Positions 58,687 through 64,000 of a stretch of 64,000 bases of DNA are shown here, one piece after another; the stretch's first letter is position 1, and every line of letters starts with the position of its first letter. Where the stretch lies: the NCBI GenBank assembly GCA_963774265.1, contig CAVZDU010000010.1, positions 367,289 to 431,288 of the forward strand, given 5' to 3'. The DNA comes from an uncultured Chloroflexia bacterium. Lineage in GTDB: Bacteria > Chloroflexota > Anaerolineae > CG2-30-64-16. Under the pieces are notes generated by a model. The model did no database searches. It was not told where the DNA came from and saw only the letters and a list, made by a program, of their open reading frames with translations. A program made the translations under genes and the position numbers.

Positions 58687-59949
58687 CTACGTCGGCCCTG
58701 GCTGCGCGGCCGCTGTCAGCACCTGCCGGAACCGTGTGCACACGGAATCGGCATCGTGGGCCGCCAGGGCTAGCTGGCGCGCCCGGCGCCCCAACGCGGC
58801 GCGCGTTTCCTGCGATGCCATCAGCGCTTCGATAGCGCCGCGGAGCAGCGCTTGGTCGCGGCGTTCGACCACATAGCCCCAGCCTGCGTCCCGCGCATAG
58901 CGCACCGGTGGAACGTGCGCGGGGCCGTACACCAGGATGGGGGCGCCTGAAGCCATGTACTCAGGCACTTTTGTGGGCATGGAATACTGGGAGAATGCCA
59001 GGCTTTCAGGATCGAAGTTGACCGGCAAGACGAGCAAGTCGGCAGACGCCAGGCAGTTGCACAGATCGGGGCGGGCCACCGGGCCCGCAAATCGAACGGC
59101 TGCGAGCGCGCCAAGGTGATGGTCGTACACATCGCGGTAGATCTCGCCGCCATACACCGTGAGGTTGATCGCCGGACCTTGCGCCGCTATGAGCGAGATG
59201 GCCTGTGCAATATCCACCAGGCTGTGGAGCTGCAGGTTATGAGCCAGCGCTCCAAGATAGACAACCCGAAACTCTGTGCCTGACCGGGCGTAGTTGTCTT
59301 TCGGCGTGGACCAGTCTGCGCGATCGATCACATTGTGGAACGGAATGAATGAAGTTTCGTACCGTTTGGCGAAGGCCGCGGCCATCTCATCTGAGATCGC
59401 AAGGTTGTAACTGGCGCTGCCGAACAGCGCGGCCAACTGCCGCCGCAGGATCGGGACCATGATTTGCCTGTAGATCGGCGGCCATTCCTTCTTCACCGCG
59501 ACGGGCCAGTCGTCCATGATATGGTTGACCAGCGGCGCCTTGAGATCGCGAGAGAGCCAGCGCGGCAGCCACCACGTGTACATCGGATAGGGGGTCGCCT
59601 GGGAATAGATGACCTGAGGTCGGAATTCCTGGGCCCAAGCGCGAACCCTGGCGTAGGGCAGGCGAATCCCGGGACGTAGAATGGCTCGCGCCCATTTGAC
59701 GAGCGCCTGTTGCTGTCGGACCGTCTTGGGCACAAACGAGTCCCCCGGCATCCGATGCTCGCCCAGGTGCAGCGAGATGGAGCAGACCTCCGTGTCCAGG
59801 GAGAAGCGGTGGTGGGCCCATACCTGGGCAAGTGCCTCCTTGGGCCAACCCCGAAACAGGTTGCGCATGGTCACCCCGCCGCCTCCGATCGGGTTAATCG
59901 GCTCGTCGCAGAGTACCAGCACCCGCGGCAGTTGGTCCGAGTCAAGCAT
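58687..59949 (-). CDS. GT4 family glycosyltransferase
   Basis: HIMDDWP, ADLLVLPVNFD, SMPTKVPEYMASGAPIL. Confidence 0.85.
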   Translation of the reverse strand: MLDSDQLPRVLVLCDEPINPIGGGGVTMRNLFRGWPKEALAQVWAHHRFSLDTEVCSISLHLGEHRMPGDSFVPKTVRQQQALVKWARAILRPGIRLPYARVRAWAQEFRPQVIYSQATPYPMYTWWLPRWLSRDLKAPLVNHIMDDWPVAVKKEWPPIYRQIMVPILRRQLAALFGSASYNLAISDEMAAAFAKRYETSFIPFHNVIDRADWSTPKDNYARSGTEFRVVYLGALAHNLQLHSLVDIAQAISLIAAQGPAINLTVYGGEIYRDVYDHHLGALAAVRFAGPVARPDLCNCLASADLLVLPVNFDPESLAFSQYSMPTKVPEYMASGAPILVYGPAHVPPVRYARDAGWGYVVERRDQALLRGAIEALMASQETRAALGRRARQLALAAHDADSVCTRFRQVLTAAAQPGPT

Positions 59950-61004
59950 CAGTTGCCAACGCCTTCGCCTGTTCGGCCTCGATCATTTCGTCCACGATGT
60001 TATCTAATGTTCGTGTGATTCCCCAAGCCGGGTAGTCGGCTTGCAGACGCCGGAGGTCCGAGATGTAGCAGATGTGATCGCCCACCCGGTTCTTCTCATC
60101 ATAATGACAGTCGATGGGCCGGCCCAGGCGCGCCTCGATCATTTCGAAGGATTCGATCACCGATGCGCTGTTGCCGCGGCCGCCGCCCAGGTTGTAGACC
60201 GCGGCCACGCGAGGGGCTTTGATGAATTCCTCAAATGCGCGCACCACATCGTGGCTGTGGACCTGGTCCCGTACCTGTTTTCCCTTGTAGCCGAAGATGG
60301 TGTAGTGGCCCCCGCTGACGGCGACCTTGACCAGGTAGGAAAGGAAGCCGTGCAGCTCTACGCCGCTGTGGTTGGGGCCTGTTAAGCATCCGCCCCTGAA
60401 ACAGACCGTCGGCAACCCGAAATACCTGCCGTACTCCTGGACGAGCAGATCCGCGGCCGCTTTGCTGGCGCCGAAGACGCTGTGTGTGCTTTGATCAAGG
60501 CGGCAGGTCTCAGCGATGCCGTGGTAGTCCTCCTCGCGCGGCATACTCCCAGCGTGTTTCGAGCTCAACGAGCGGAAGCTCATTCGGCGCGTCGCCGTAC
60601 ACCTTATTGGTGCTCATGTAGACGAAGGGACTCTCGGGGCAGTGCTTGCGGGCCGCTTCCAACACGTTCACCGTTCCCACGACGTTGACGTCAAAGTCGT
60701 CCACCGGCCGCTGGTGCGACAGATCGTGCGAGGGTTGGGCCGCACAATGGATCACGGCATCCGGCCGATGCTCGATGAAGAAGCGGTCGACAGCCGACCG
60801 GTCGCGGAGGTCGATGTCAAAATGGCGAAAAGAGCGGGTGCTGGCTTGCAAGCGTTTGAGATTCCACCGGGTGTCGCCTTTCGGCCCGAAGAAGTCCATG
60901 CGCATGTTGTTGTCGATGCCATAGACGGCGTGCCCGAGTGCGTCGAAATACGTGACGGCTTCGGAGCCGATCAGACCACTCGAGCCGGTTACCAAAAGCC
61001 TCAT
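59942..61004 (-). CDS. NAD-dependent epimerase, CDP-paratose 2-epimerase-like (frameshift ~60540)
   Basis: [55 protein letters not shown]. Confidence 0.88.
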
Positions 61005-61030
61005 GAAACCTCCTTCGAAAATGATCTCGA

Positions 61031-62272
61031 TTACCCGGTTGGGACGGCGGCTGGCACCAGTTGGACCTGATAGCCCAGCTTCTCCAGGCGTTTGACGGCC
61101 CGCCGCTTCACAGCTTCACGGTCGCGCTCGTCGAAGTAGTTGCCGCCTAAGTCCTCGTACTTGGTTTGCCGAGTGATCAAGTAGTAGCCGGTGACCAGCA
61201 AGCTGTGCCCGACGGCCATTAGCGCCCGTTGTTTGCCCCGCCGGGCCGCCAGGCGCCCATAGAGCGCCTGGAAGTACTTGTGCTTGGTGCGGGCAGCGCC
61301 GTGCGCCGCTTCCACCAAGGCTCGCCGCAGCCAGGGACTGCCTTTGCGGGTCTTGCCACTGTAGCGTTTGCCGGCACTTTCGTTGTTGCCGGGACACATG
61401 CCCGCCCACGAAGCCAGATGCTCCGCATCCTCGAACGGCTGCAGGTCGGCCCCAATCTCAGCGACGACGATCTCCGCAATCCGCTGGTTGATCCCCGGCA
61501 GCGAGTCCCAGGCCGCCAGCGCCGGCGCAAAAGGGTGCATCTGCTCCGCGATCTGCTGGTCGAGCCGGTCGATGGCCTCGTCCAAGAAGTCGATGTGGCT
61601 CAGGTGTTGCGCCAACATGAAGCGATGATGCGCCTGCACGCGTCCACTTAGCGCCTTCTGCAGCAGGTCCAGCTTGTCCCGCAGGCGACCCTTGGCCAGC
61701 TCGGCTAACACGGCTGGATCGGCCTGGCCTTGCACGATCTGATCCAGCATCGCTCGTCCGCTGACACCCATCACATCGGTCGCCACGCTCGCCAGCTTGA
61801 TGTTGGCGTCTTCCAGCACCTTCTGCACCCGATTGATCTCACTGACGCGCTCATCGCCCAGCTTGGTGCGATAGCGAGTCAGATCGCGTAACGCACGTAG
61901 CTCAGCCGAAGGAATGAAGCTCCCTTTGAGCAGCCCGTGCCGCAGCAGGTCCGCAATCCGCTCCGCATCTTGCACATCCGTCTTGCGGCCAGCTAACGCC
62001 TTGATGTGCTCTGCATTGACCACCAGAATGGCAAACCGCCCGTCGAGCAGGTTGTACACCGGCTTCCAGTACACCCCGGTGCTCTCCATCGCCACGTGCG
62101 TGACCCCAAGGCCCTGCAACCATTCCGCCAGTGCTTCCAGGTTCTCGGTCAAGGTATCAAACGTGCGGGTCTCCTTCACCGATTGCCCATCCGGCCCAGG
62201 CACGATCGCACACGCCACCACCGTGCGCTTGTGCACATCGATCCCGCAGCACCGCTCATAGACCACTTGCAT
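61031..62272 (-). CDS. IS110-family DEDD transposase/recombinase (413 aa)
   Basis: [40 protein letters not shown]. Confidence 0.95.
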
Positions 62273-62294
62273 CGTGCGCCTCCGCTTGCTCGTG

Positions 62295-62450
62295 ATCGCC
62301 CCAGCGGAGTGCCTGATATGCGAAGAGTCTCCTTCGCGTACTCCCCCAAATTGGAGGGCCACAGTCTACGGTGCCTGCAGGCACTCGAGCCAAACTCCCT
62401 TGCGGACTCGTGGCACCAGGTAATTCATCCGACTTCATGCCAGGGCGTCT
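62295..62450 (-). ncRNA. Putative bridge RNA of IS110 copy 1
   Basis: Non-coding scaffold conserved with copy 2; stem GAGTGCCTG/CAGGCACTC (62307-62315/62378-62386); guide-like variable segments match the element end and flanks. Confidence 0.7.
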
Positions 62451-62455
62451 CCACC

Positions 62456-62483
62456 ATTCTACGCCCCCATTTTCATCCGTCAA
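62456..62483 (-). promoter_or_regulatory. Promoter in the IS110 upstream end, pointing into the putative bridge RNA and transposase
   Basis: TTGACG-16 bp-TAGAAT on the minus strand; TAGAAT also present in copy 2 (63950-63955). Confidence 0.6.
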
Positions 62484-62527
62484 CGGTGAGCCAACGGCTA
62501 ATCAGCAACTCCCTTGAAAATGACCTG

Positions 62528-63769
62528 TTACCCGGCTGGGGCAGCGGTCGGCGCCAAGTCGACCCGGTAGCCGAGCTTCTCCAAACGGCGTACAGCTCGG
62601 CGCTTGACTGCCTCACGGTCGCGTTCGTCGAAGTAGTTGCCGCCCAGGTCCTGGTAGGTCGTCTGCCGAGTGATCAGGTAGTAGCCGGTGACCAGTAAGC
62701 TGTGCCCGACGGCGACTGCTGCCCGCTGTTTGCCTCGCCGGGCGGCCAGGCGGCGATAGAGCGCCTGAAAGTACTTGTCTTTGGTGTGGGCGGCGCCATG
62801 TGCGGCTTCGATGAGCGCTCGCCGCAACCAGGGACTGCCTTTGCGGGTGCGACCACTCTTGCGCTTGCCCGCACTTTCGTTGTTGCCGGGACACATGCCG
62901 GCCCAGGAGGCCAGGTGATCCGCATCCTCGAAAGGCTGCAGGTCGGCCCCGATCTCGGCGACGATGATCTCAGCGATGCGCTGGTTGATGCCCGGCAGCG
63001 AGTCCCATGTCGCCAAGGCCGCCGCAAAAGGGCGCATCTGCTCCTCGATCTGCTGATCGAGTTGGGCGATTGCTTCATCCAGAAAGTCGATGTGGCTCAG
63101 ATGCTGGGCCAGCATGAAGCGATGATGCGGCCGCACCCGCCCGCTCAACGCCTTCAGCAACAGGTCTTGCTTGTCGCGCAGGCGACCTTTCGCCAACTCA
63201 GCCAAGATGGCGGGATCGGTTTGGCCCCCGACGATCTGGTCCAGCATCGCCCGCCCGCTGACGCCCATCACGTCGGTGGCCACACTGGCCAGCTTGATGT
63301 TGGCGTCTTCCAACACCTTCTGCACCCGGTTGACCTCGCTCTTGCGCTCATCGCCCAACTTCGTGCGATAGCGCGTCAGGTCGCGCAACTCGCGCAAGAC
63401 CTGTGAGGGGATGAAGCTGCCCTTCAGCATCCCGTGGCGCAACAGGTCCGCGATCCACTCCGCATCCTGCACGTCCGTCTTGCGCCCAGCCAAGGCCTTG
63501 ATGTGCTCGGCATTCACCACCAGGATGGCGAAACGCCCGTCCAGCAGGTTGAACACCGGCTTCCAGTACACCCCGGTGCTCTCCATCGCCACGTGCGTCA
63601 CCCCAAGCCCCTGCAACCAGCCCGCCAGCGCCTCCAGGTTCTCAGTCATCGTCGCAAAGGTCCGGGTCTCCTTCACCGGTTGACCGTCCGCCCCCGGCAC
63701 GATCGCACACGCCACCACGGTCTGCTTGTGGACATCGATCCCGCAGCAGCGCTCATACACCACTTGCAT
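62528..63769 (-). CDS. IS110-family DEDD transposase/recombinase (413 aa)
   Basis: Same motifs and length as copy 1, but diverged. Confidence 0.95.
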   Translation of the reverse strand: MQVVYERCCGIDVHKQTVVACAIVPGADGQPVKETRTFATMTENLEALAGWLQGLGVTHVAMESTGVYWKPVFNLLDGRFAILVVNAEHIKALAGRKTDVQDAEWIADLLRHGMLKGSFIPSQVLRELRDLTRYRTKLGDERKSEVNRVQKVLEDANIKLASVATDVMGVSGRAMLDQIVGGQTDPAILAELAKGRLRDKQDLLLKALSGRVRPHHRFMLAQHLSHIDFLDEAIAQLDQQIEEQMRPFAAALATWDSLPGINQRIAEIIVAEIGADLQPFEDADHLASWAGMCPGNNESAGKRKSGRTRKGSPWLRRALIEAAHGAAHTKDKYFQALYRRLAARRGKQRAAVAVGHSLLVTGYYLITRQTTYQDLGGNYFDERDREAVKRRAVRRLEKLGYRVDLAPTAAPAG

Positions 63770-63789
63770 GGCTCACCCCCGCTGATCTC

Positions 63790-63945
63790 GATCGCTCCAG
63801 CGGAGTGCCTGATCATCGAAGAATCTCCCTTGCGTGCTTTCCCCTGGCGGGGCGCAACAGTCAGCGGTGCCTGCAGGCACTCAAGCCAAACTCCTTACGG
63901 ACTCGTGGCACCAGGTAAACATCCGACTTCGCACTGGAGCGTCAC
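63790..63945 (-). ncRNA. Putative bridge RNA of IS110 copy 2
   Basis: Homologous scaffold to 62295-62450 with different guide segments. Confidence 0.7.
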
Positions 63946-64000
63946 TCGTATTCTACCCATTTTCATCGCGCAGCGGTGAGCCTTGGCTCATAGACAACTC

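Follow-up and report, generated by a model that had tools for sequence, protein, structure and literature searches.

Introduction

In IS621 of Escherichia coli, a bridge RNA carries a target-binding loop and a donor-binding loop (Durrant 2024, PMC11208160; Hiraizumi 2024, PMC11208158). In these accounts, RTG and RDG are the guides of the 3' loop sides; each extends to the first core base, and next come two handshake bases, which read the other DNA. In the description of the IS1111-type seekRNA elements, the two target-matching regions come in reverse order relative to those of IS110-type RNAs (Siddiquee 2024, PMC11187229), and the same article cites Partridge and Hall (2003) for members that target the ends of other mobile elements. 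Complete IS110 modules duplicated in tandem (n = 437) and a lack of target immunity were reported in a preprint by Hu et al. 2026 (10.64898/2026.08.14.744561).

Here, we analyzed a 64,000-nt stretch of DNA from an uncultured Chloroflexia bacterium (the window). Reading of the sequence placed two complete IS110-family elements at the end of the window, head-to-tail on the minus strand. It is very probable that each of them encodes a DEDD/serine recombinase together with an upstream two-loop bridge RNA that guides the recognition of donor and target.

Results

Two Complete IS110-Family Elements at the End of the Window

Copy 1 occupies 61010..62508 on the minus strand (1499 bp including one AG core). 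Copy 2 (1489 bp) follows at 62509..63997 on the same strand and shares 82.5% identity with copy 1; the contig ends 3 nt into the left flank of this second element. The recombinase genes were located at 61031..62272 (minus strand) in copy 1, encoding 413 aa from the ATG (PF01548, E 1e-32; PF02371, E 4.4e-20), and at 62528..63769 (minus strand) in copy 2, also encoding 413 aa (PF01548, E 1.4e-32; PF02371, E 4.1e-21). Against NF033542 ("IS110 family RNA-guided transposase," cut-off 140), the products of copies 1 and 2 scored 274.8 and 285.1 bits, respectively. The recombinase of copy 1 is only distantly related to the IS621 transposase (E 7.4e-17), and its 413 aa contrast with the 328-residue chain of the latter. 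The alignment spans both domains, including the GID, ESTG, KTDxxDA, and ES motifs, and the putative catalytic residues were assigned by reading it. Both copies have the DEDD RuvC-like domain and the serine Tnp domain expected of IS110-family bridge-RNA elements, as does IS621 in its published description.

The boundaries of copy 1 were read from several sources. The element is present in three genomic copies with 99.5% identity, which have the sequence TTGCTG...CGAAGGAG in common and differ outside it, and the likeness of metagenome contigs to copy 1 begins at 61010. At the orthologous site of a same-genus genome, the element is absent and there is a single Shine-Dalgarno sequence. This empty site, from one relative, has no extra bases, so there is no duplication beyond the core, as reported for IS621. 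The three copies and the empty site show that the right-end bases are carried by the element and are not flanking DNA. In the element sense, the right end of copy 1 (61010..61017, minus strand) reads C + GAAGG + AG, with the core at 61010-61011, and that of copy 2 (62509..62516, minus strand) reads C + AAGGG + AG.

Both ends contain a subterminal repeat. In copy 1, the right repeat is CATTTTC in the element sense (61017..61023, minus strand), kept as (C/T)ATTTTC in relatives, and the left repeat is GAAAATG in the element sense (62468..62474, minus strand), 34 nt inside the left end. In 85 of the 89 relatives for which a boundary was available, the left repeat lies 30-37 nt from the left end. 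IS1111-type elements are likewise described as having inverted repeats in subterminal position, beyond which short, asymmetric extensions follow (PMC11187229). However, the repeats are 7 bp long here, at the lower edge of the 7-17 bp that Durrant gives for the IS1111 group, compared with 11-13 bp given for IS1111 and 2-3 bp for IS621, and the left extension is 30-37 nt instead of the 6-7 nt given for IS1111. The RNA region lies upstream of the gene, whereas that of IS1111 is described as downstream, so the elements fall outside the IS1111 type. A candidate promoter, TTGACG-16-TAGAAT, was recognized by consensus match upstream of the RNA, within the left end of copy 1 (62456..62483, minus strand; 10/12 matches, one site compared with 0.5 expected).

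Predicted Structure of the Bridge RNAs

A structured bridge RNA is predicted in the long left end of each element, upstream of the gene as described for IS621, at 62307..62444 in copy 1 and at 63803..63938 in copy 2 (both minus strand). The covariance model R1 matched 62321-62444 with 93.6 bits (E 2.9e-25) and 63817-63938 with 99.6 bits (E 5e-27), and the 3' strand of the outer stem of loop 2 extends the copy 1 RNA to 62307. Among the window and 159 related loci, R1 gave 152 matches at E <= 0.001. The three modeled helices were 98.3% paired, with 37 compensatory cells compared with 9.7 in shuffles.

The stem enclosing loop 2 of copy 1 is formed by GAGTGCCTG/CAGGCACTC (62307-62315 and 62378-62386), and its counterpart in copy 2 begins at 63803. 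RNAalifold on the first MAFFT alignment recovered the two inner hairpins only, so the outer stems needed separate testing. A helix of at least 8 bp was found for the loop-2 outer stem in 82 of 116 elements, compared with 10% of shuffled pairs. An Rfam scan of 60900-64000 gave no match at E <= 1, and single-sequence folds of the two left ends were not better than shuffles (z -0.37 and -1.34). According to the R1 model, the long non-coding end would thus contain the two-internal-loop RNA that characterizes IS110 bridge-RNA elements, and as published for IS621 the first loop would serve the target and the second the element's own ends.

The Loop-2 Guide Covaries With the Right End of Its Own Element

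The initial annotation had noticed in the second loop of each RNA an 8-mer identical to the downstream end of the same element, and direct reading confirmed both cases. The plus strand at 62329-62336 is CTCCTTCG, the same as the copy 1 end at 61010-61017, and the plus strand at 63825-63832 is CTCCCTTG, the same as the copy 2 end at 62509-62516. In the RNA sense, the donor guides on the 3' side of loop 2 are therefore CGAAGGAG for copy 1 (62329..62336, minus strand) and CAAGGGAG for copy 2 (63825-63832, minus strand), each corresponding to its own right end plus the core. The two 8-mers differ at two positions (2 of the 7 guide positions), and the changes in loop and end are identical.

Two copies in one window cannot by themselves separate covariation from chance, but relatives can. 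The loop-2 guide was therefore compared with the 7 nt that follow the TTTTC motif of the right end. The relatives drawn upon included 80 of at least 579 from metagenomes. In a regex-anchored set of 80 elements, which held 47 distinct guides, all seven positions matched in 67 elements, six in 6, and five or fewer in 7, while 0.2% of the shuffled pairs matched perfectly. In a non-redundant set anchored by the covariance model (n = 107), the corresponding numbers were 78, 10, and 19, with 0.1% perfect matches after shuffling; the relatives are not independent, so the significance taken from shuffling is overstated in both sets. Some of the 19 poor matches were mis-anchored. Five matched guide/end pairs were found within the close clade alone: GAAGGAG, AAGGGAG, AGTGGAG, AAGAGAG, and AGAGGAG. 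The covariation thus persisted on the wider alignment called for in the initial annotation, and the earlier proposal that loop 2 is the donor-binding loop, with a guide that follows the element's own right end, was supported. This guide corresponds to the donor guide of published bridge RNAs, a kind that is already known.

A Second Donor Match Inside the Left End

The 5' side of loop 2 in copy 1 (CACCGUAGAC, 62365..62374, minus strand) resembles, in the same sense and with one mismatch, the segment CACCGTTGAC inside the left end (62480..62489, minus strand). The two covaried in the same sense among relatives (z 7.3-11.6); the variable 6-mer was identical in 33 of 101 elements and agreed at five of six positions in 42, compared with 0.8 and 14% in shuffled pairs. 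The segment lies about 22-27 nt inside the left end, beside the left subterminal repeat and behind a conserved DNA hairpin, AGCC-GTT-GGCT (62489..62499, minus strand), whose stem reached at least 5 bp in 61 of 85 relatives, with 44 arm types, compared with 10% of shuffles. At the end of the loop 2 5' side, the final base bore no relation to the core, and the penultimate base did not complement the base with which the left end begins.

The initial annotation had called its donor model incomplete and had pointed to a match of about 3 nt between the other half of loop 2 and the left terminus. The model was indeed incomplete, but the 3-nt match showed no covariation and was discarded as the other half. 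In IS621 as published, the second donor guide reads core-adjacent bases, whereas here it reads the left-end interior on the same strand, so that a single DNA strand would be the pairing partner of both loop-2 guides.

The junction between the right end of copy 2 and the left end of copy 1 was also considered as folded single-stranded DNA. The fold gave z -1.34 and was equaled by 26 of 200 shuffles, which is no evidence for such a structure. In the best structure, the subterminal repeats pair with each other.

Target Guide, Core, and Handshake Bases in Loop 1

On the 3' side of loop 1 in copy 1 (62392..62401, minus strand), the target guide CAAGGG and the core AG occupy 62394-62401. They are followed by UU (62392-62393), identical to the two bases that open the left end and located at the handshake position. 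Direct reading of copy 2 gave the target guide UAAGGAG plus UU at 63889-63897. Among 101 elements, the target guide matched the left flank at 7/7 positions in 51 and at 6/7 in 38, at a fixed distance of 30-37 nt from the left repeat, although these counts are partly circular since the boundary was picked by that match. Independent support came from the flanks of the three copies of copy 1 and of ten copies of a relative. In 77 of 85 elements, both handshake bases agreed with the initial two bases of the left end, compared with 15% after shuffling (z 10.5 and 12.8). Loops 1 and 2 carried an identical core in 77 of 85 elements, AG in 60 and AA in 17.

A core dinucleotide common to both loops and two handshake bases behind the 3'-side guide are also described for IS621. 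The arrangement of the guides differs. Here they are 7-8 nt long, core-adjacent, and on the 3' side, whereas the LTG and LDG of IS621 are given as 8-9 nt on the 5' side; since both guides come after the inner hairpins, the layout is not of the IS621 type. The core is AG in the RNA sense (CT on the other strand), unlike that of IS621. For the 5' side of loop 1, no partner could be detected here, again unlike IS621: no column pair with the right flank or the donor reached z 5 in 60 elements. A likeness of AUG on this side to start codons had been seen by eye and was dropped.

Shine-Dalgarno Targets and the Order of Insertion

The right end of copy 1 now forms a Shine-Dalgarno-like sequence 6 nt before the ATG of an epimerase gene. 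All three copies of copy 1 are followed by an ATG 5-7 nt after the right end; in one genome, the ten copies of a related element all have it, as judged by eye, within 4-8 nt. Elements in the clade of the window target a Shine-Dalgarno sequence and supply the downstream gene with a new one through their right end, while the target described for IS621 is a REP element. Extending this preference to the whole family was rejected, as 11 of 60 target guides were Shine-Dalgarno-like; an ATG was found 4-11 nt behind the right end in 12 of 60 relatives, compared with 3 of 60 in a control window.

The IS900 group of Mycobacterium inserts between the ribosome-binding site and the start codon, and the IS900 transposase gene is opposite in direction to the target gene. 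The elements of the window resemble it in landing after a Shine-Dalgarno sequence and before a start codon and differ in that the recombinase gene has the direction of the target gene. IS900 is listed as an IS110-family member with a hed ORF (PMC8141618).

The target guide of copy 1, CAAGGGAG, equals the right end of copy 2, which explains why copy 1 stands directly behind copy 2 and means that the pair, for which the initial annotation had suggested possibly orthogonal donor specificity, is coupled and not independent. The same arrangement, a target guide equal to a sibling's right end, was found for 19 of the 85 relatives, some of which sit behind miniature elements. A pattern search of the window's own genome for miniature elements of this IS110 type returned none, its one match being unrelated. 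Most likely copy 2 was inserted before copy 1, an order that is based solely on guide matches because the left flank of copy 2 is cut at the contig end. At the window's own locus, the start of the epimerase gene had no orthologue in 25 relatives, with short weak matches only, so the original site and the order of insertion are not directly readable there. The loci of Hu et al. (2026) likewise show head-to-tail modules whose boundaries retain a match to one donor half. That report attributes the pattern to recombination of the resident element at a half match, whereas here a different family member carries a target guide equal to the first element's right end.

Public sequencing runs were also searched. 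All 24 runs listed were available as contigs, and none contained half of the sampled words. Neither a circle nor a joint free of copy 1 was found in the assembled contigs of the four runs examined. The four joints listed for these contigs fall within the gene, have sides of 22-30 letters, and are taken to be other family members.

Discussion

The guides suggest the following mechanism. The 3' side of loop 1 would read 5-6 nt of the target plus the AG core, with two more bases matching the element's own left end. The 3' side of loop 2 would read C, 5 nt from the right end of its own element, and again the AG core, and the 5' side of this loop would match, in the same sense, the stretch 22-27 nt inside the left end. 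By homology to IS621, the recombinase-RNA complex would pair these guides with the target and with the element ends joined by circle formation, and strands would be exchanged at the core. Copy 1 would then have landed behind the earlier copy 2, whose right end its target guide reads.

A resemblance due to chance or shared descent would need the same two changes at two places of two related copies with no functional link. The window does hold only two copies, which are rather similar to each other, and purine-rich 8-mers recur in the region; but 47 distinct guide/end pairs in the regex-anchored set, perfect matches in 78 of 107 elements against 0.1% in shuffled pairs, and five different matched pairs within the close clade leave this explanation a negligible probability. 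It is also highly improbable that loop 2 binds the target and that the 8-mer at 61010-61017 is no element end but host flank, namely the epimerase gene's Shine-Dalgarno sequence. Such an assignment draws on the position of CGAAGGAG, 6 nt before the epimerase ATG and similar to a ribosome-binding site, and on the 30 of 60 loop-2 guides in the family that are Shine-Dalgarno-like. However, TCATTTTCGAAGGAG is found in all three copies before three different genes, and CAAGGGAG is constant in ten copies of a relative with differing flanks. Moreover, the single Shine-Dalgarno sequence at the relative's empty site matches the left flank and not CGAAGG, the left flank is matched by loop 1 and not by loop 2, and covariation is equally good for guides without Shine-Dalgarno likeness, for example CAGAACAG and CATGGTAA.

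With loop 2 taken as the donor loop, the polarity of the system can be read in two ways. The system may use the IS621 mechanism in opposite polarity, with the RNA antisense to the strand that has the core as CT, as in IS621, the guides of the 3' sides corresponding to the IS621 RTG and RDG with their handshake bases, and the RNA/gene module inverted relative to IS621; the right end would then be, in geometric terms, the "right donor." The order of guide, core AG (CT on the opposite strand), and two nucleotides covarying with the donor is the one described for the 3' side of IS621, and a reversed guide order relative to the IS110 type, seen here as well, has its precedent in the IS1111-type RNAs (PMC11187229). 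On the other hand, the 5' sides should then read the other strand beside the core, while that of loop 1 showed no covariation and that of loop 2 reads the same strand 22-27 nt away. We regard the case for this reading as evenly balanced. A further possibility, which we put forward tentatively and think rather unlikely, is that both arms of the donor loop recognize a single DNA strand in a folded single-stranded junction and that target guides are set to the right ends of siblings. Recognition of the donor would then not involve a short duplex spanning the core. Instead, both arms would pair with the strand antisense to the RNA, one at the right end and core and the other about 25 nt away in the left end, across the DNA hairpin and between the 7-bp subterminal repeats. 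Head-to-tail stacking would follow, with miniature left-end/right-end relics serving as landing pads. As far as their published descriptions go, the single-strand circle models of 2025-26 preprints agree with such a folded donor junction.

With the donor-guide finding, the logic already published for bridge RNAs is obtained anew from raw sequence; the finding is sound as annotation and does not amount to a discovery. Large surveys of bridge-RNA variants exist, reported to comprise 86 models and 32,190 RNAs, and may already cover this clade. What may interest specialists is the layout in this Chloroflexota-centered clade: one-sided core-adjacent recognition, an inner donor site on the same strand behind a hairpin, and target guides that often equal a sibling's right end. 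The pair in the window and the two other insertions of copy 1 offer natural substrates for studying cross-recognition. If the inner left-end site is truly required, it would broaden the rules for what counts as a donor and would bear on whether the intermediates are single-stranded or double-stranded.

Two Head-to-Tail Elements and Their Bridge RNAs

The final 3 kb of the window, which form the end of contig CAVZDU010000010.1, contain two IS110-family elements arranged head-to-tail on the minus strand. Copy 1 spans 61010-62508, as delimited by the junctions of three copies and an empty site in a relative, and copy 2 spans 62509-63997, its left flank alone being missing at the contig end. ORF calling gave each element a gene of 413 aa (61031-62272 in copy 1 and 62528-63769 in copy 2, both minus strand). 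Each ORF has a DEDD_Tnp_IS110 and a Transposase_20 domain and exceeds the cut-off of the NCBIfam model "IS110 family RNA-guided transposase", and the copy 1 ORF, the one compared with solved transposases, matched IS621 (E = 7.4e-17) and ISCro4 (E = 1.1e-13) distantly. The DNA identity between the copies is 82.5%. Two more copies of copy 1, with 99.5% identity, lie on contigs C3 and C5 of the same genome, and a third type, similar to copy 2, is represented on contig C2 by a 170-nt left-end remnant (L162, 601493-601673). The remnant is devoid of a recombinase gene; its loop 1 is intact, with the guide UAAGGAG and the left flank GGAAGGAG, and the sequence stops within loop 2. Copy 1 adjoins an NAD-dependent epimerase/dehydratase gene (59942-61004, minus strand), which a frameshift or a sequencing error splits into two overlapping ORFs of 164 aa (positions 2-144 of 240 in the Pfam profile) and 213 aa (positions 127-240).

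Relatives were gathered from genomes (79 loci, from the best 80 of 107) and metagenomes (80 loci, the best 80 of 579). When 47 upstream regions were aligned as a seed, three helices were supported, with 98.3% of cells paired and 37 cells compensatory versus 9.7 in shuffles. The covariance model made from this alignment gave 152 matches at E <= 0.001, including the two window copies at 93.6 and 99.6 bits. The stem GAGTGCCTG/CAGGCACTC, named in the initial annotation as enclosing the second loop, is real: a helix of at least 8 bp, formed by many different sequences, occurs at this position in 82 of 116 non-redundant elements, and shuffled pairs reach 10%. In element sense, the RNA starts with an outer stem and the 5' side of the target-binding loop 1 (~12 nt), followed by the hairpin UGGUGC..GCCCG, the loop 1 3' side (guide, core, two bases and U) and the outer stem. 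A second outer stem then leads into the 5' side of the donor-binding loop 2 (..GCACC-NNNN-GAC), the hairpin UGU.GC..GCACG and the loop 2 3' side, where C, five bases, the core and A.UC... precede the outer stem.

The Donor Guide Matches an Element-Borne Right End

In element sense, loop 2 of copy 1 reads CGAAGGAG and the right end reads ...TCATTTTCGAAGGAG; the corresponding sequences of copy 2 are CAAGGGAG and ...TCATTTTCAAGGGAG. Direct reading bore out the positions and letters of the four 8-mers in which this identity of loop and right end had been noticed (62329-62336 and 61010-61017 in copy 1, 63825-63832 and 62509-62516 in copy 2). Since CGAAGGAG lies 6 nt ahead of the ATG of the next gene and resembles the ribosome-binding site of that gene, it matters whether the right end belongs to the element or to the flank. 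All three copies of copy 1 finish in TCATTTTCGAAGGAG and diverge beyond it (GTTTCATG, GTCAGCATG, and TCATCCATG), and on the left side they diverge upstream of AAGGGAG|TTGCTG. In a genome of the same genus, the empty site orthologous to the gene start at the C3 copy reads ...CATCAAGGGGG TCGTCC ATGAACCC, in which the two flanks, left and right, meet directly, with a single ribosome-binding site and no element. The three-copy junctions and this empty site together indicate that CGAAGG at the right end of copy 1 was brought by the element, with AG as the shared core and no other duplication.

Guides, Core and an Inner Left-End Site Covary With the DNA

Covariation was evaluated in the 116 non-redundant elements, whose related sequences are non-independent, so that shuffles overstate the significance. 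The proposal that the loop 2 guide covaries with the right end held in this larger alignment. The loop 2 3' side was identical to the 7 nt behind the TTTTC-type motif downstream of the gene at all seven positions in 78 of 107 elements, at six in 10 and at five or fewer in 19, compared with 0.1% (7/7) and 6.7% (6/7) of shuffled pairs. An earlier independent anchoring had matched 67 of 80 elements, with 47 distinct guides. The loop 1 3' side matched the left flank at 7/7 in 51 and at 6/7 in 38 of 101 elements, and in 85 of the 89 elements scoring at least 6 this target match preceded the left subterminal repeat by 30-37 nt. With the left-end boundary located independently of them, the two bases after the loop 1 core equalled the first two bases of the left end in 77/85 (shuffled, 15%). 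The core was identical between the two loops in 77/85, being AG in 60 and AA in 17.

The 3-nt match of the loop 2 5' side to the left terminus, also reported in the initial annotation, showed no covariation. Instead, the last seven bases of this side covaried in the same sense (z 7.3-11.6) with left-end DNA 5-10 nt ahead of the GAAA of the left repeat. The variable 6-mer was identical to this inner left-end site in 33 of 101 elements and matched at 5/6 in 42 (shuffled, 0.8 and 14%). No complementary signal between the loop 2 5' side and left-end DNA reached z 4.5, and the loop 1 5' side had no partner in target or donor at z 5 among 60 elements. The inner site adjoins the 7-bp subterminal repeat (CATTTTC/GAAAATG) and is preceded by a hairpin whose stem is at least 5 bp in 61/85 elements versus 10% of shuffles, with 44 arm types. 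Despite the kinship of the sequences, the donor, target, post-core pair, core and inner-site signals are robust because of the number of distinct guide types. These results confirmed the loop 2 observation and its reading as a donor loop, and the donor guide in the window is an instance of the published mechanism.

Directly upstream of its RNA, copy 1 carries a promoter-like TTGACG-16-TAGAAT, recognized by consensus match only. In the stretch 62468-62483, the inner left-end site overlaps the -35 hexamer TTGACG of this sole promoter-like site, and by eye no good -35 was seen at the corresponding place in copy 2 and the related locus L002.

Shine-Dalgarno Targets and Tandem Insertion

The target of the window clade is a Shine-Dalgarno sequence, for which the right end supplies the replacement. 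An ATG lies 5-7 nt downstream of the right end in 3/3 copies of copy 1; for a related element, 10/10 copies in a single genome have it within 4-8 nt (by eye). A family-wide test ruled out such targeting as a trait of the whole family and limited it to the window clade. A similar insertion site is known for the IS900 group of mycobacteria. IS900 is described as an IS110-family member with a hed ORF (PMC8141618).

The target guide of copy 1 is CAAGGGAG plus UU, and CAAGGGAG is exactly the right end of copy 2; the ribosome-binding sites left of the other two copy 1 insertions are CAAGGGAG and GAAGGGAG. The possibly orthogonal donor specificity suggested initially is complicated by this, because the copy 1 target guide reads the copy 2 donor end. 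Copy 2 would have entered the epimerase ribosome-binding site first, and copy 1 would have followed behind the copy 2 right end, which is the likely order. The reverse, copy 1 before copy 2, needs poorer guide matches and is less probable, but it keeps some likelihood because the left flank of copy 2 is cut off and the epimerase locus was found in none of 25 relatives.

A metagenomic relative with 96% identity to copy 1 lies behind the same motif, CATTTTCAAGGGAG, there part of a ~75-nt miniature element composed of a left and a right end of the copy-2 type, and contigs from a further metagenome run have ATTTTCAAGGGAG to the left of an element resembling copy 1 and diverge beyond it. A TTTTC-type motif occurred exactly 7 nt ahead of the left end in 19/85 elements versus 7/3380 at control offsets. 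Upstream neighbours were inspected in a previous set of 41 elements, 17 of which had such a motif before the left end; the upstream partner had a transposase gene in three (L015, L018, and L028), the window being the fourth case, and was a miniature element in several others. Tandem IS110 modules and a lack of target immunity, ascribed to half-matches, are reported in a preprint (Hu et al. 2026, 10.64898/2026.08.14.744561). The words "tandem", "Shine" and "ribosome" are absent from the main text of Durrant 2024 (PMC11208160).

Miniature elements of ~55-120 nt were seen at L082:370-446, L097:~700-820, L134:~885-942 and upstream of L045, each directly followed by an inserted full-length member of the family. 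They retain only the left end from base 1 as far as the left repeat, with its hairpin and inner site, the right repeat and the last 7 nt, and may mark the donor parts required in cis. MITE-like derivatives have been described for ISPpu9. The element at L045:238-356 follows a right end of the type that it carries itself, and its target guide UAGGGUAG is nearly identical to its donor guide CAGGGUAG, which would give self-stacking arrays.

In the genome that also holds L002-L010, the copy at L013 (1150-1210 and 2400-2500) is missing 31 nt at the start of its left end; a second copy of its right flank, 37 bp long, stands there instead and directly abuts the left subterminal repeat (TGAAAATGG). Its right junction is normal. 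The duplicated flank contains a CCGTT stretch resembling the inner left-end site, and the arrangement suggests an aberrant event in which that site was used. The right-end motif recurs in the downstream flanks of L028, as short direct repeats (CCCCTGATTTTCAGGAGA twice), and of L032, as CAGAG repeats.

Comparison With IS621

In the IS621 bridge RNA, LTG (A50-U58) and LDG (A123-C130), guides of 8-9 nt pairing with the bottom strand, are found on the 5' loop sides. The 3' sides hold RTG and RDG; each of these stops at the first base of the core, and the next two are handshake bases reading the other DNA (Hiraizumi 2024, PMC11208158). Set against this description, the core-adjacent guides of the window clade are on the 3' side with two donor-reading bases behind. 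On the simplest mapping, they would therefore be equivalents of RTG and RDG together with the handshake bases, the core would read CT on the antisense strand of the RNA, and the module of RNA and gene would, in comparison with IS621, be inverted with respect to the site. Guide regions in opposite order are described for IS1111-type versus IS110-type RNAs (Siddiquee 2024, PMC11187229). Unlike in IS621, the site read by the second donor guide of the window clade lies 22-27 nt away from the core and shares its strand with the site of the first guide. The published accounts consulted contain no counterpart to the inner left-end site. According to large surveys, the structures of many bridge RNAs differ from that of IS621 and still show covariation with target and donor (2026 preprint), and the window clade may already be described there. 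Its layout departs from the IS621 model in ways worth a bench test.
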